From a virus: a DNA stretch of 64,000 bases. The DNA is taken from IMG/VR virus record IMGVR_UViG_3300022777_000088; one strand, given 5' to 3'. Shown here piece by piece: positions 17,691 to 62,071 of the stretch (positions are counted from its first letter, which is position 1; each line of letters begins with the position of its first letter). The notes below the pieces were generated by a model, which did no database searches, was not told where the DNA came from, and saw only the letters and a program-made list of their open reading frames with translations. A program made the position numbers and the translations under genes.

Positions 17691-17959
17691 TCCTCAATGT
17701 ATACATTCCGAAAACGGTAGGTGACTTCCTCAATGTCTTCGCTCTCGCTTCCATTTGCCCGCGAGTTCGCCATGCGTTCGGCTTCACGTCTCGCATTTTC
17801 CTTTCTGCGAAAACCCGACAGTGACTGCTCAGTTTTTTTCGTCCCGTCTTTGTATTTCACAACCAAGTCATAGCTGTGAACAACAGGGACTTGATCTTCC
17901 GGCGCAAGAGCCCCGCTGAACTTGAAGTGTCCTTCCAGAAAGTGTGGCGTCCAACTCAT
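17681..17959 (-). CDS. hypothetical protein
   Basis: Coupled to the CCA enzyme gene. Confidence 0.6.
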   Translation of the reverse strand: MSWTPHFLEGHFKFSGALAPEDQVPVVHSYDLVVKYKDGTKKTEQSLSGFRRKENARREAERMANSRANGSESEDIEEVTYRFRNVYIEDWA

Positions 17960-19122
17960 CGGTTTTGGGATCTTTGAATGAGAGTGTCGCGGTCGGTGAT
18001 TGCCTCTTCAAGCTGAATGTCGTGCGCCTTTTGGACGAGATCGCCAATCTGCGGACCTTCCTCAAATCCTTCTTCAAGAAAGTCTTGACCCGTCACAATC
18101 GGCTCAAGAGGCACGTCTTCCGGCTTCGCAAAACGGCTTGAAGGAATGCCGATTTGATTTCCGATTCTTTGTGCAGTTTCCAAATGCTCTCTGTATGCCG
18201 CCAAAATTTTTCTCCGAATGGTTTCGCGAACAGGATTCCGAAGAAGAAAAATTGCGGTGCCAACGTTCTTCACTTTCTCAACGAGATCATTGGAAAGCTT
18301 CAGCTTCTGTTGAACTTCTTCAATGTCCATTCCCACGCTTCCGGAAAGTTCATCGATGAAAAGGATCATCCGATCTTTCGGATCACTGACTTTGTGAACG
18401 CGAGTTTCAAGTTTCCAGATTTTTCTCTCGATCAGATCCGAGAGAATGCCAAGATCAGTGATTCCAGTGAGAAACTGAGCAGGCTGGTCGTCCTTCATGG
18501 CTTTCTCAATCTCCATCATGACCCGCTCGACGGAAACGTTCTCGCTTACGCGACCTGAGAGACGACGCATTGCATCCACTTCCTCGTAATCGATGAGAAA
18601 GTCGTAGCGTGCCGCAAAACGAAGAGCCCGAACGATCCGAAGAAAGTCTTCGCGAAAACGGCGGTCAGCACTTCCAACCGTGCGAATGCGCTTGTCTTCA
18701 ATGTCGGAACGCCCACCGTACGGGTCGATAACTTCAAGATCTTCACCAGAAAGCCGTGCGGCCATAGCGTTGATTGTGAAGTCTCGCCGACTGAGATCGT
18801 CTTCAACTGTGTCGGCAAACTCCACGGTCGCATTGCGGCCGTCTGTGGATACGTCACGCCGAAAGGTGGTGACTTCGTATTCCAAATCATTCTTCAAAAG
18901 CGTCACGGTGCCATGGCCAATGCCTGTCTCCACGACGTTCCAGTTGCGCTTCTGCGCCTTTTGCTTGACGGTTTCGGGACGATCGGAAGTGGCGAGGTCA
19001 ATGTCGTCGGAGTCGCGGCCGATGATAGCGTCTCGAACCGCACCGCCAACGACGTGAAGATCCGACAGAAAAGAGAGCTGCCGAAGCGCCCGGTGAATGC
19101 GTTCTTCAGTGCTGTTCATCAT
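17956..19122 (-). CDS. class II tRNA nucleotidyltransferase (CCA-adding / poly(A) polymerase family)
   Basis: VGGAVRD, DIDLAT, EVTTFR, DLSRRDFTINAMA, RFREDFLRIVRALRF. Confidence 0.93.
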   Translation of the reverse strand: MMNSTEERIHRALRQLSFLSDLHVVGGAVRDAIIGRDSDDIDLATSDRPETVKQKAQKRNWNVVETGIGHGTVTLLKNDLEYEVTTFRRDVSTDGRNATVEFADTVEDDLSRRDFTINAMAARLSGEDLEVIDPYGGRSDIEDKRIRTVGSADRRFREDFLRIVRALRFAARYDFLIDYEEVDAMRRLSGRVSENVSVERVMMEIEKAMKDDQPAQFLTGITDLGILSDLIERKIWKLETRVHKVSDPKDRMILFIDELSGSVGMDIEEVQQKLKLSNDLVEKVKNVGTAIFLLRNPVRETIRRKILAAYREHLETAQRIGNQIGIPSSRFAKPEDVPLEPIVTGQDFLEEGFEEGPQIGDLVQKAHDIQLEEAITDRDTLIQRSQNR

Positions 19123-43973: not shown

Positions 43974-45131
43974 ATGATCATCGAAAAGCCACTTGACATT
44001 CAAAACTTTCTTCGCGACCCGGACAATGGGCTTGGAGATTTGAAGCAGGACCCGTATAAGTTGAGTATCAATGTGGGAGAAGACCGGAGGCGCGTATGTT
44101 TCAAGTACAACCAAATCAAGTCGGATATGAGTCTTCGAATTTGCAAAGAGGCTCGTGGCCTAATTTTGGATAAAGAAAACAACTGGAACGTGGTGAGCTA
44201 TGCCCTTCCACGATTTTTCAATGCCGCAGAGAACGAAGCCGCTGACATCGATTGGGAGTCCGCAGAAGTATTCACCAAATTTGATGGTTCGGCAGCAGTT
44301 CTCTACTTCTGGCAAGGTGAGTGGCGAATGCACACTCTTGGGACTGTTGAAGGTGAAGGAGAAGTTCGCATGTCCGACGCCATTATGCGCCAAAAGGATT
44401 GGGACGGCGAAACTTTCGCTGACCTGTTTTGGGACCGATTCGAAAAAATTTATGGGCTTGATCGTCTTGATGAGCTTGACAAAGACTGCTGCTACATGAC
44501 TGAGCTTTGCACGCCTTACAACCGTGTGGTCAAGCGGTACGACGAAGACCGAATCGTGCTTTTGGCGATTCGCAATCGGGAAACGCTTGAAGAGCGGGAC
44601 ATCTCCACGGCAGCCGAGTGGTGGGACCGGCCACAGCGGTTCAGTGTGGATGCATACGGCGATATTATGGATGCGATTGAAGATCTTGACCCGGACGACG
44701 AAGGCTTCGTGTGCGTCGACAAGCACTGGCGGCGAATCAAGATCAAGCAGGAGAGCTACGTTCTTCGCCACAAGATGAAAGATTCAATCGTTGAGCGAAA
44801 GAACGGCATTATTGAGGCAATCCAGAACGGCGACGCCGATGATTTCGTGGGCACGTTTCCTGAGTTCAAAGGCGTGTTTGAAGAGACGAAGGATGAAATG
44901 GACCAGCTCGTTGAGCGCATGGATGAGTATTATCGTGAACTTGGCGGAGACAATGTGGACCCAGATGACCACCAGGAGCGCAAGGAGTTCGCTCTGGCGG
45001 TTCAAGAGTTTCCCGTGGGGGAAGTGCAAGGTCTTTTTTTTCAGCGGCTTACAGGGGAAATTGAGGACTTCTGGGACGGACTGGAAGAAACAAAGACCGA
45101 GAACGTCGCCGCTGCTCTTTCCAAGTTGTAG
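43974..45131 (+). CDS. T4 Rnl1-like RNA ligase
   Basis: Nucleotidyltransferase motifs KFDGS, TELCTPYN, EGFV, IKIK; ARGLIL. Confidence 0.85.
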   Translation: MIIEKPLDIQNFLRDPDNGLGDLKQDPYKLSINVGEDRRRVCFKYNQIKSDMSLRICKEARGLILDKENNWNVVSYALPRFFNAAENEAADIDWESAEVFTKFDGSAAVLYFWQGEWRMHTLGTVEGEGEVRMSDAIMRQKDWDGETFADLFWDRFEKIYGLDRLDELDKDCCYMTELCTPYNRVVKRYDEDRIVLLAIRNRETLEERDISTAAEWWDRPQRFSVDAYGDIMDAIEDLDPDDEGFVCVDKHWRRIKIKQESYVLRHKMKDSIVERKNGIIEAIQNGDADDFVGTFPEFKGVFEETKDEMDQLVERMDEYYRELGGDNVDPDDHQERKEFALAVQEFPVGEVQGLFFQRLTGEIEDFWDGLEETKTENVAAALSKL

Positions 45132-56121: not shown

Positions 56122-56208
56122 AGAGGGCGTCCGGCTGGACGAGGAGCCTGTCTTGAAAACAGGTAGCACCTTCACAGGGTGTTAGGGGTTCGAGTCCCCT
56201 GCCCTCTG
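56122..56208 (+). tRNA. tRNA-Ser(TGA), no encoded CCA
   Basis: Acceptor AGAGGGC/GCCCTCT, anticodon stem CCTGT/ACAGG, long variable arm, TTCGAGT loop. Confidence 0.92.
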
Positions 56209-56648
56209 CATGATTCCGTTTCTTGTTCTCGCCGGTCTTGTTTTCGTTTTGATATACGCCCTTGCCTGTTGGCTAGCGAAGGACGCTCCGTATATCGGCA
56301 ACTCGAAGCGAATGAGAGAGATTGATAAGAAACTTCGTGAACTTGAAAACTGGCGCCAGTAGACTTGTATGGGTATTAACACAGACGAGGACCTGAAAGT
56401 TGAGGTTTCCGACTCAAAGCTGGTTAGCGTCGGACACGGCGACTCTGCAACAGAGTGGAAAGTGCGCATTGCGGGGGAAACGTACCGGCGGCAAAAGCAT
56501 TACGACATCAACTGGTACAGGGAAGGTGTCGACGCTGGCAACGGAAAGTATCCCGCGCCCGAAGTTCAAGATCTGTTGGAAGTGATTTTCCGACAGCACC
56601 AGGCAGTTGTGAAAGATCAATGAAGCGGGGAACACCTTTCGCACTGGG

Positions 56649-57192: not shown

Positions 57193-57285
57193 AGAGGGTA
57201 GGTGGATATCGGTTAGCCACACTGGCCTGCTAAGCCAGCGGTCACGTTTTGCCGTGGCCTGAGGGTTCGAGTCCCTTGCCCTCTG
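57193..57285 (+). tRNA. tRNA-Ser(GCT), no encoded CCA
   Basis: Acceptor AGAGGGT/GCCCTCT, CTGGC-CTGCTAA-GCCAG, long variable arm. Confidence 0.92.
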
Positions 57286-57751
57286 CTATTTCAAAAACAA
57301 CGCAATGAGAGAAAAAAAGGAAAACATTCGAGAGATTGTGTTGCCTCGAATAGACGGCAAGCTAACCAAACTTGCTGAACAAGAGGATTTGAGAAAGGAA
57401 GAAGATTATGTCAACCACCTTCTTCGTCGACGAAAAAACTTGATGAAGAAGCTCGATGAATATGAATAATTTTCATGTTTTTTATGTCCGAGGAACCAAA
57501 GTACGTACTTCGACTCCGAACTGGCGAAATCTCTTCCGAGAAGGAAATATCAACGGCTCAAGTTCAGTTTTGGCCGGAACTCGCAGAAGAGTTTATGAGT
57601 TCGATTCGGGAGAACTTGGGGAGAGAACCGACGCTTCATCGGGTCGATCTCATGACGAATGAATATCATTCTGAGCATGTCCGAAGACTTGATAACGAAA
57701 GCCACGGCCCGCTTATGAGAAAGGCACTCGACGTTCTCTCGTAAAGAAGAT

Positions 57752-57842
57752 GGAGGGGTGGCAGAGTCTGGTTTATCGCGCCGTCTTGGAAAGGCGGTTG
57801 TCATGAGATATTGGCACGGGGGTTCAAATCCCTCTCCCTCCG
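57752..57842 (+). tRNA. tRNA-Ser(GGA), no encoded CCA
   Basis: Acceptor GGAGGGG/TCCCTCC, CCGTC-TTGGAAA-GGCGG, long variable arm. Confidence 0.9.
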
Positions 57843-57987
57843 CTTTATGAAGATAATCATTCTGGCGAGTATTCTTATCGGCGTGCCGCTTTTCGTATTC
57901 GGGGCGGCATGGGCATATCCGATAGAAGTCCACGAAATGCCAGATAGCTATTCAGAGGCAGTAAATCAGTACAATGATGGTTGAATC

Positions 57988-58443
57988 GTGACTCACATTC
58001 TGGCGTTGCTCTTCTTTTTGAGCATTCTTGAAGAGCCGCCAGAAAGGAAGCAGAGAGAAACGGAAACGCTTCCAAAATACTTCCGAAGAGTCGACGATGG
58101 AAAGCCACTTCGAAAGCTCGTCAATCATAGCGGAAAAGGCCATTTCATTCGCGCAGTCCCTTTCAAAGCACACGCTTCAAATCCCGACACGCTTCAAATC
58201 TATGTTCAAGGGGTTGTCAAAGGTCAGGTCCGGCCAAACCGAAAAAAAGCTGCGAAGGCAGATCTTGTCATCTGGTGCTTTCCGACTCGCTATCCGCACC
58301 CTAACCACATTTTCCCAGAGGCAGAAGGGCGCATATACGTCAATGAAGATCAAAACAGAGAGGTATTTATTGTAGCGACTGAAGATTTTTTCAAACAGAC
58401 TATTCAACAACGAACAGATCTTCATGTCTTATCACCCCGTTGA
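57988..58443 (+). CDS. hypothetical exported protein
   Basis: Hydrophobic N-terminus. Confidence 0.55.
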   Translation: MTHILALLFFLSILEEPPERKQRETETLPKYFRRVDDGKPLRKLVNHSGKGHFIRAVPFKAHASNPDTLQIYVQGVVKGQVRPNRKKAAKADLVIWCFPTRYPHPNHIFPEAEGRIYVNEDQNREVFIVATEDFFKQTIQQRTDLHVLSPR

Positions 58444-58535
58444 CAGGCCGATGTCCGACGGAAAAATGTTGGGAATTCATACAATCTACGAAACTTCCTT
58501 GCTTCATAGCCGTTGCAGACTACGAAGGAAATTTT

Positions 58536-58757
58536 AAGTAGGCTGGTTCGTCGCACTATCGGTAGAGATATGTCGGTAGTGAGGAAGCTCCGGGCACCGC
58601 TGCTCTAATCCGGGAGACGCAAGTCGTTCCTAACCGGAGAGGGTGAAACTTCAAGCAGCCTTATGAACGGGCGGTGAGCAGGCCCAAAATAGGCGGGTAG
58701 AAGGCGATAAGATAGATGACGAACTTAGATGACAGGATCCGGGCTACAGGCTTACTT
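58536..58757 (+). ncRNA. rnpB: minimal RNase P RNA (~222 nt)
   Basis: CR-I GAGGAAGCTCCGGGC, CR-IV GAGCAGGCCCAAAATAGG, AGATAGATGAC, CR-V ACAGGATCCGGGCTAC; P1, P2, P3, P4 (bulged U) and P5 all pair. Confidence 0.85.
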
Positions 58758-58797
58758 AATTTTTGATATACGGGTATTGATCAATAATAAGACTGAT

Positions 58798-59112
58798 ATG
58801 AATTCATACATAAACCTCTTTCCACAAGAAGATAAGAACGTCTCGAAGCGGACCGAAGAAAGTGACTGGAGCCCCGAGTCTATGTCCGAAGTTGTTGTAC
58901 AGCTCAGTCAAGACTTTAAATTCGGACGGCCGACAACAGAGGAGTTTGAAAGTCATGAGGATTGGAAGATCACAAACCGAAGACAAATCGATATCATTGA
59001 TAAAAGTGACGGTTCAAGTGTACAGGGCGAGATTATAGAAGCGAAGTATCGGGGTGACAAAAACTTCGATCAAGAAACCGTTTCGGGTATTGTCCCACGA
59101 GAATATCAGTAA
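58798..59112 (+). CDS. hypothetical protein, paralog of 59146-59442
   Basis: Shared ESDWSP, DW.ITNRR, KYRGDK.F, VPREYQ. Confidence 0.75.
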   Translation: MNSYINLFPQEDKNVSKRTEESDWSPESMSEVVVQLSQDFKFGRPTTEEFESHEDWKITNRRQIDIIDKSDGSSVQGEIIEAKYRGDKNFDQETVSGIVPREYQ

Positions 59113-59145
59113 GCGTATAGGAACACTGAATTCAAAAACTAAACC

Positions 59146-59442
59146 ATGAGCCTCTTCACGAAAGAAGACAGAGAGTTTTCGCAGCGGGCCAAAGAAAGCG
59201 ATTGGAGTCCAACGCCTCCAGTGGTTGAGCAGCTTCGCGAAGACTTCCATAATGGGAACCCGTCGACAGAAGAGATTGAGAATCACAGTGATTGGGAAAT
59301 CACGAATCGGCGGCCAACGACGATATCAAGGGAAGATGCTCCTAGTGTTGAAGCTGAAATCTTCAAAATCAAGTATCGCGGAGATAAAGACTTTGAAACT
59401 GAAATCGTTCCAAATGAATTCGTTCCACGAGAGTACCAGTAA
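59146..59442 (+). CDS. hypothetical protein, paralog of 58798-59112
   Basis: Same shared motifs as 58798-59112. Confidence 0.75.
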   Translation: MSLFTKEDREFSQRAKESDWSPTPPVVEQLREDFHNGNPSTEEIENHSDWEITNRRPTTISREDAPSVEAEIFKIKYRGDKDFETEIVPNEFVPREYQ

Positions 59443-59444
59443 TA

Positions 59445-59810
59445 ATGTATCTTCCTCAAGAAAAGTTAGAAAACGTTGAGTACTACGAGTGTTACACGGG
59501 CGAGATGTCTTATCAAATGGACGGAAAGCCTGTGCAGAAAGACATCATCATTCTTCATTTTGGGGAGTGGACGAAACGGTGGAAGCTCTTTGGACTCACT
59601 GTGTGGTCGAAAACGATGGAAGACCGCACGAAGAAGTTTGTGTTCAAGCGAAACCGCAACGTCAAAGATATAGACGAAGGGCTTTACACTTTTAAGCTCG
59701 ACGAAGAGTTCAAAGAGCTTCGCGCACAACTCGAAGCGTATTTTGATAACGAGTTCTACGAAGTCTACAAAGAGTTGAAAGAGCATGAAATCAATTACGC
59801 GATCAGCTAA
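59445..59810 (+). CDS. hypothetical protein ending LKEHEINYAIS
   Basis: C-terminal HExxY motif. Confidence 0.7.
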   Translation: MYLPQEKLENVEYYECYTGEMSYQMDGKPVQKDIIILHFGEWTKRWKLFGLTVWSKTMEDRTKKFVFKRNRNVKDIDEGLYTFKLDEEFKELRAQLEAYFDNEFYEVYKELKEHEINYAIS

Positions 59811-61994: not shown

Positions 61995-62071
61995 GCCGCC
62001 GTAGCTCAACTTGGTAGAGCAGCCGACTTGTAATCGGCAGGTTGTAGGTTCAAGTCCTATCGGCGGCTCCA
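61995..62071 (+). tRNA. tRNA-Thr(TGT) with encoded CCA
   Basis: GCCGCCG/CGGCGGC acceptor, GCCGA-CTTGTAA-TCGGC. Confidence 0.95.

Follow-up and report, generated by a model that had tools for sequence, protein, structure and literature searches.

A 64,000-nucleotide stretch of viral DNA (IMG/VR record IMGVR_UViG_3300022777_000088; hereafter the window), which comes from a large phage of salty water, carries a gene for a strongly reduced relative of bacterial RNase P RNA. We consider it likely that this RNA is a working, phage-encoded RNase P RNA that consists of the catalytic domain only and matures the 5' ends of phage pre-tRNAs. This reading adds inferred transcription, cleavage activity, protein partner and benefit to the phage to the observed homology, conserved fold, conserved core nucleotides and genomic context. 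RNase P RNA counts as a universal housekeeping ribozyme of cells. In the full-text literature, we found no paper that describes one encoded by a phage or another virus, an absence that is no proof.

When positions 58300-59000 were searched with cmscan in E-value mode, the sole match was RF00010, the bacterial type A RNase P RNA, at 58535-58762 on the plus strand (78.0 bits, E-value 6.9e-24, model positions 1-367, not truncated). The initial annotation, which had proposed a structured RNA with the landmarks of the RNase P catalytic domain at this place, is thus supported by a covariance-model match that runs from end to end. The score lies below the curated RF00010 gathering cut-off of 100 bits, which is explained by the lack of the specificity domain and of P18. 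The relatives described below, with RF00010 scores of 49-64 bits, are also under this threshold; the E-values are still 1e-15 to 1e-24. A scan of the entire window at Rfam gathering thresholds returned two tRNAs only and no RNase P, for no other reason than that 78 bits is less than 100. Statistically, the homology to bacterial type A RNase P RNA is clear.

The Rfam alignment of the window RNA keeps P1, P2, P3, the CR-I string GAGGAA..UCCGGGC, P5, J5/15, P15, the L15 motif GGGUAG, the J18/2 AUG and the CR-V string ACAG.A.CCGG..UACA. Absent from it is the specificity domain P7-P14 with CR-II and CR-III, where about 140 model positions are represented by about 40 nt; the two P5 strands of the window RNA are about 43 nt apart. 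P18, which the initial annotation had also taken to be absent, is deleted in the Rfam alignments of both the window and the related contig L071. No open reading frame of at least 40 amino acids spans 58557-58728. The minimum free energy of the single sequence was no better than that of shuffles (z = -0.09) and is uninformative, so that the case rests on homology and on comparison, including covariation. The features discussed here are listed in Table 1.

Table 1. Positions of the reduced RNase P RNA, its structural elements and the genes discussed in the text, counted from the first nucleotide of the window.
Feature	Position	Strand	Remarks
Class II CCA-adding enzyme	17956..19122	-	PHROG 2244; Pfam PF01743
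T4 Rnl1-type RNA ligase	43974..45131	+	PHROG 562; PF09511
tRNA-Ser(UGA)	56122..56209	+	ARAGORN; A1-U72; no encoded CCA
tRNA-Ser(GCU)	57193..57286	+	A1-U72; no encoded CCA
tRNA-Ser(GGA)	57752..57843	+	Ortholog abuts the RNA in L077/L080; no encoded CCA
Leader homologous to the 3' end of the L070 GIY-YIG/NUMOD3 homing-endonuclease gene	58461..58532	+	Alignment to L070 1286-1357; Pfam
Mini RNase P RNA gene	58535..58759	+	~222-225 nt; RF00010 end to end; 233 bits with its own covariance model R1
P1	58536-58544 / 58749-58757	+	9/9 pairs changed on both sides among relatives
P2	58546-58552 / 58718-58724	+	98.6% of cells paired; 6/7 pairs covary
P3 hairpin	58554-58562 / 58573-58581 (58554..58581)	+	95.6% of cells paired; 6/9 pairs covary
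CR-I: J3/4 GAGGAA and P4 5' strand AGC-U-CCGGG	58581..58594 (P4 58586-58594)	+	
P5	58595-58598 / 58642-58645	+	CACC / GGUG; 100% paired; 3/4 pairs covary
P6 pseudoknot	58600-58605 / 58676-58681	+	CUGCUC / GAGCAG, the latter in the P17 loop
Specificity-domain remnant	58609..58638	+	P7-like helix 58610-58613 / 58634-58637 around GCAA-capped hairpin 58616-58625
J5/15 AAA, P15, P16, P17, L15 GGU	58646..58703	+	Comparison of ten sequences
P15	58649-58652 / 58700-58703	+	97% paired; covariation
P16	58658-58661 / 58691-58694	+	100% paired; covariation
P17	58669-58672 / 58682-58685	+	
L15 GGU	58696-58698	+	Within GGGUAG 58695-58700; GGGUA invariant in 10/10 sequences
J15/2 (no P18), P2 3' strand, J2/4 ACAGGA, CR-V / P4 3' strand	58704..58748	+	
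P4 3' strand	58738-58745	+	UCCGGGCU (CR-V); partner of 58586-58594
T-run directly 3' of P1	58760..58764	+	Read from sequence
tRNA-Thr(UGU)	61995..62071	+	Encoded CCA

Several helices agree with those drawn in the initial annotation. P1, P2 and P3 form as it had described, with a different P1 register in L077 and L080, and the L15-like GGU that it read in GGGTAG is present. Its P4, in which AGC-U-CCGGG pairs with UCCGGGCU, also holds, including the compensatory changes: relative to the Rfam consensus AAG-U-CCGGG / CCCGGCUU, an A-U pair has become G-C and a G-C pair has become C-G, both at positions that are near-universal in cellular RNase P RNAs. P4 starts with AGC/GCU in 10/10 sequences versus AAG/CUU in the consensus. 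It is paired throughout the ten sequences, with two covarying pairs and inner pairs that read CCGG/CCGG, CUUG/CGAG or CUAG/CUAG, and its bulged U, at 58589, is invariant. Across 58704..58748, the Rfam consensus AUG...ACAG.A.CCGG..UACA is kept.

Other parts of that first model had to be redrawn in view of the covariation in relatives. The extended P5 it contained, CACCGC with GCGGTG, can pair in the window sequence alone and has not been conserved; among relatives the four-pair helix reads CACC/GGUG, CUCC/GGAG, CACA/UGUG or UACC/GGUA. The GAGCAG that had been taken for CR-IV is actually the 3' strand of P6. One of the two hairpins assigned to a reduced specificity domain, GACGCAAGUC, is present, and the other, GAGGGTGAAACTTC, dissolves into the 3' strand of P5, J5/15 and the 5' strand of P15. 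The P7-like helix and its hairpin covary, and the length of the hairpin is variable among relatives. A T-rich tract follows P1 in the relatives that we read as well, and a terminator scan found no classical terminator hairpin.

The P6 pseudoknot was tested sequence by sequence since its register shifts between subgroups. A complement of 5-8 bp lies at the homologous place in 10/10 sequences and in at least five sequence versions, among them CUGCUC/GAGCAG, CCGCGC/GCGCGG, ACAGCGC/GCGCUGU, UCUCGC/GCGAGA and CCGCUCGC/GUGAGCGG. In all ten, the best complement of J5/7 is the apical loop of P16/17, with a combined shuffle p of about 1e-3.

For the comparison as a whole, we derived a nested structure by hand and built a covariance model (R1) from it and seven sequences. 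Among 40 sources, R1 matched members of the family only, and it matched none of 30 unrelated viral loci that had been fetched by a chance 15-mer match. Adding L094, L095 and LR756508.1 to the seven gave an alignment (A7) of ten distinct full-length sequences, in which we counted 58 pairs from P1, P2, P3, P5, the P7-like helix, its hairpin, P15, P16 and the P4 and P6 pseudoknots. Standard pairs fill 91.7% of the pair cells, compared with 30.6-46.3% after a shift of the 3' partners by 1-3 columns, and none of 500 column shuffles reached any of the five measures used. Both sides have changed in 37 of the 58 pairs, and the covariation among related phages that the initial annotation had named as a check is therefore present. 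Helix by helix (P1, P2, P3, P5, P15 and P16/17), 74-100% of the cells are paired and most pairs have changed on both sides.

The core motifs that do not vary in the ten aligned sequences are GAGGA..AGCUC, GGGUA, AUG and ACA..AUC..GGCUA, with a 4-nt insertion inside GAGGAAGCUC in L094 as the exception; the bulged U, the adenosines of J3/4 and J5/15, the GGU of L15 and J2/4 are all retained across these diverged sequences. The exception, at L094:490-722, is a UGUA inserted into CR-I (GAGGA-UGUA-AGCUCC), and it may be a real variant of an active-site junction or an assembly error. The reduced architecture, a catalytic domain with P4 and P6, a P7-like helix with a hairpin and no P18, is conserved in ten phage sequences.

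The nine further full-length copies all lie in related phage DNA. A protein search with the 121-aa gene 3' of the RNA (59445-59810) gave 14 homologues, on contigs that are syntenic with the window: an AAA ATPase, a NUDIX protein, tRNA-Ser genes, the RNA and the 121-aa gene are followed by genes for a Zn-ribbon protein, a chorismate mutase, an RNA ligase and a dCMP deaminase. The same reduced RNA occupies the same place in L071/L076 (RF00010 in E-value mode, 63.9 bits, 226 nt) and in L077/L078 (RF00373, 29 bits, 224 nt). Within the clan, bacterial type A scores best for the window, L071, G001, LR756508.1 and DLP6, and RF00373 for L077/L078 only. L080, a metagenome contig from ENA, was the single locus obtained from a metagenome pattern scan. 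Sequencing runs with parts of the locus include hypersaline-lake metagenomes, and the contigs aligned to the locus are diverged relatives.

The complete relative is UViG_3300005193_000001 (G001), a genome of 263,015 bp that CheckV rates as 100% complete and in which L088 lies, the only relative to come from an IMG/VR pattern search. Its RNA, at 164270-164491 on the minus strand (RF00010, 63.2 bits), sits inside a cluster of 43 (Rfam) or 46 (ARAGORN) tRNA genes for all 20 amino acids, all on the strand of the RNA. One of the 46, at L096:1425-1500, is a tRNA with a CUA anticodon (an amber suppressor, called 'Pyl' by ARAGORN), a hint that phages of this group may recode TAG or read through it. 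An unannotated copy at 76010-76235 (RF00010, 49 bits) was also found in LR756508.1, a published 484-kb uncultured huge phage; the paper describing that genome does not mention RNase P. Both G001 and LR756508.1 carry terminase genes. About 355 nt upstream of the RNA in LR756508.1 ends an open reading frame that resembles TnpB/OrfB of IS200/IS605-type elements (L092:1-1146, corresponding to ~74510-75655), with motifs identified by eye. A further unannotated copy is found in a cultured phage, Stenotrophomonas phage DLP6 (KU682439.2, 105774-106022; RF00010 54.7 bits, R1 62.9 bits).

Five other cultured, tRNA-rich phages (RpAliso, CcrBL9, CcrColossus, Myrna and Atu_ph07; 1.4 Mb together) contain no RF00010-like RNA at E <= 0.01, which shows that the element is not universal and is no generic false positive either. 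Plain sequence searches recovered little. A blastn comparison of the window RNA region with the INPHARED phages gave no match, the 69 IMG/VR loci found with the pattern GAGGAAGCTCCGGGC were all chance matches, other IMG/VR sequence patterns had 0 matches, a sequence-pattern search of genome contigs gave nothing and protein-based searches of IMG/VR produced no relatives.

As the initial annotation had noted, the RNA lies among phage tRNA genes: four of them share its strand in the window, between 56122 and 62071. In four relatives, the gap between RNA and tRNA is only 0-6 nt. The RNA starts 0-4 nt 3' of tRNA-Ser(GGA) in L077 and L080, and it ends about 6 nt before tRNA-Ser(CGA) in LR756508.1 and 3 nt before tRNA-Arg(CCG) in DLP6. 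An encoded CCA is absent from most G001 tRNAs and from the three tRNA-Ser of the window; among the 26 phage tRNAs that we listed (22 from G001 and the four of the window), only the tRNA-Thr of the window has one. In eleven of these 26, the first nucleotide is A1 or U1 rather than G1; position -1 is usually U or A, and tRNA-His has an encoded G-1 opposite C73. Besides the CCA-adding enzyme, whose best phage match is in LR756508.1 (42.7% identity) and whose nearest Atlas clusters are bacterial, and the RNA ligase, the window encodes a NUDIX protein, AAA ATPases and genes resembling those of homing endonucleases. A peptidyl-tRNA hydrolase of the PTH2 type, which is the archaeal/eukaryotic type, is encoded near the tRNA/RNase P locus in L077 (2936-3286) and L078 (628-978).

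The protein subunit of bacterial RNase P, RnpA (PF00825), was not found in the complete genome G001 by a search that was positive in 10 bacterial control genomes. The 121-aa neighbour was considered as an RnpA-like cofactor and found no support: its AlphaFold model (pLDDT 75) has a beta-meander and a long helix, and Foldseek against the PDB gave nothing at E <= 0.001 and nothing RnpA-like.

These observations would fit the following course of events. Transcription of the RNA would follow the direction of the phage tRNA genes and probably include them, since the RNA abuts tRNA genes in relatives; there is no transcript evidence. In the several relatives in which it is fused to a tRNA gene, processing of the tRNA ends would also free the ribozyme, and where a tRNA follows, an RNase P cut at the 5' end of that tRNA would make the 3' end of the ribozyme itself. 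The predicted fold of the transcript comprises P1-P5 and P15-P17, with the P4 and P6 pseudoknots as locks, and presents the J3/4 adenosines, the bulged U of P4, the J5/15 adenosines and J2/4 as elements of the active site. The GGU of L15 would pair with the 3' RCCA of the tRNA, for which there are no binding data, and the ribozyme would remove the 5' leaders of the phage's own pre-tRNAs. Because P7-P14 have shrunk to a P7-like helix and a hairpin and P18 is absent, substrate affinity would most likely come from a protein. This is probably host RnpA; the host is unknown, and such a dependence is therefore a guess. The phage CCA-adding enzyme would supply CCA to the tRNAs that do not encode it and, given this enzyme and the invariant GGU, CCA addition may precede 5' cleavage. 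The benefit would possibly be extra or host-independent capacity to process 40 or more unusual tRNAs.

The missing S-domain, the alteration of two conserved P4 pairs and the lack of a phage RnpA in the complete relative could also be expected of a non-catalytic decoy that mimics the RnpA-binding face of the host's RNase P RNA and titrates host RnpA, or some other factor that binds RNase P, thereby reprogramming or shutting down host tRNA maturation. We think this improbable, as elements that serve only substrate binding or chemistry (the bulged U, J3/4, J5/15, GGU and J2/4) are invariant in ten diverged sequences, the gene lies among, or is fused to, tRNA genes whose products require 5' processing, and RNAs consisting of the C-domain only are known to be active (PMC5839562). 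There is likewise only a slim chance that an RNase P-derived ribozyme or scaffold has been retargeted to substrates other than tRNA, be it polycistronic phage mRNAs, tRNA-like structures or its own release from transcripts. Loss of the S-domain, which recognises the T-loop, relaxes the substrate specificity of engineered RNase P. Hairpin substrates were used by Mao et al. 2018 (PMC5839562), but a retargeted enzyme would account poorly for the consistent association with tRNA clusters and for the retained CCA-binding GGU. That the RNA is a functionless, decaying fragment of a host rnpB picked up by a phage, as its sub-threshold Rfam score and large deletions might suggest, deserves next to no credence and is already contradicted by the covariation in the alignment, since at least ten diverged phage sequences share the reduced architecture with 37 covarying pairs and intact pseudoknots, the position is syntenic, and the homing-endonuclease insertion in L070 carries a second intact copy.

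All three readings are less likely than a working ribozyme, against which some points nevertheless count. The elements of the S-domain that recognise the tRNA T-loop are absent, which lowers the efficiency of engineered RNAs; the CCA to which the conserved GGU would bind is missing from most of the phage tRNAs; and the Rfam score is below threshold, with two near-universal P4 pairs changed, though compensated.

In contig L070 (from Logan, ERR14693531), the syntenic RNA gene, at 435-1729, is split by an AT-rich insertion of 1.09 kb into a 5' part (~437-499) and a 3' part (1593-1729). The insertion holds a GIY-YIG/NUMOD3-like open reading frame (614-1363) and a complete, diverged second RNase P-like copy (1359-1580). 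It gave no match to an Rfam intron at E <= 0.01, and an interpretation as a group I intron was dropped. Just upstream of the window RNA lies a 72-nt remnant of the 3' end of an L070-type endonuclease gene. We had considered that the RNA might be more conserved than its flanks, which was not borne out (74-87% identity for the RNA and 73-83% for the flanks). Between the window and L081, the flanks are 81-83% identical and the RNA 74%; between the window and L094, the RNA is 87% identical and the flanks 75%. Such discordant identities indicate a mosaic exchange of RNA alleles and, together with the upstream endonuclease homology, suggest that this putative exchange is driven by an endonuclease. 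Directly 3' of the RNA, the window has two paralogous small open reading frames (58798-59112 and 59146-59442, within 58752-59444) that are absent in relatives, and in contigs of the sequencing runs X2 and X3, 58751 is followed directly by 59146 or 59445. The 3' boundary of the RNA is an insertion or recombination point.

With bacterial type A RNAs (RF00010; E. coli M1 RNA, rnpB), the phage RNA shares the order and topology of P1-P5 and P15-P17, the P4 and P6 pseudoknots, the CR-I, CR-IV and CR-V motifs, the bulged U and the L15 GGU. It differs from them in being phage-encoded, in its length of ~222 nt versus ~330-400, in having a short helix and a hairpin in place of P7-P14, in lacking P18, in a P4 that starts with AGC/GCU instead of AAG/CUU, and in its sub-threshold score. 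The initial annotation had held this shortness to be confined to archaeal type T RNAs, which overlooked a counterexample, the mitochondrial RNase P RNAs. Type T RNAs, found in Pyrobaculum and relatives, resemble the phage RNA in being natural RNAs of ~200 nt that have lost the specificity domain almost wholly (Lai et al. 2010, PMC3012483, cited in PMC8172020). Type T RNAs are archaeal and act together with archaeal proteins, whereas the phage RNA, which lies in phage genomes, has a bacterial-type model as its best Rfam match and keeps P6, P16, P17 and the L15 GGU. It would not qualify as type T by that match or by the accompanying CCA-adding enzyme, which is of bacterial class II.

The RNase P RNA of Mycoplasma fermentans is reportedly reduced as well, to 276 nt; in contrast to the phage RNA, it and the RNAs of CPR bacteria are cellular, essential and single-copy, with the S-domain present. 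The RNAs of CPR bacteria are comparable in keeping the core while scoring under Rfam thresholds or missing peripheral helices (Lui et al. 2021, PMC8172020). Experimental precedents are engineered C-domain RNAs (Eco CP RPR and Pfu C-domain), which have no S-domain, depend on a P6-type interaction and can dispense with P18. The E. coli C-domain alone cleaves substrates and needs the P6-like interaction but not P18, and the P18-less Pyrococcus C-domain is active without S-domain or protein (Mao et al. 2018, PMC5839562). Those RNAs are laboratory deletions, whereas the phage RNA is natural and conserved and has a true P6 and a remnant of P7 and a hairpin. The DLP6 copy is likewise a C-domain-only RNA in a phage tRNA cluster; the subfamily of the window is set apart from it by the P4 signature AGC-U-CC/UU/UA-G and by a fixed neighbourhood in halophilic and huge-phage relatives.

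It is possible, although we regard it as rather doubtful, that large phages go further and run an orthogonal tRNA maturation, with their own tRNAs, CCA-adding enzyme, RNA ligases and C-domain-only RNase P, in which the ribozyme has no need of host RnpA and acts by itself or together with a phage protein not yet recognised. That would make phage translation independent of host shut-off and of defences that target tRNAs, or resistant to them, and the ribozyme gene would matter enough to serve as the target of a homing endonuclease that travels with its own variant copy, as in L070. The working catalytic-domain-only RNase P RNA that we favour can be put to the test with the DLP6 copy, for which phage and host are in culture, and a compact natural RNase P RNA of ~222 nt may be of engineering interest. 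Its retention of P6 and loss of P18 and the S-domain agree with laboratory deletion studies. If the reading is true, the needs of a minimal ribozyme in vivo would be revealed by a natural enzyme of bacterial type that has no S-domain, and the missing 5'-end step would be added to the known tRNA toolkits of phages.
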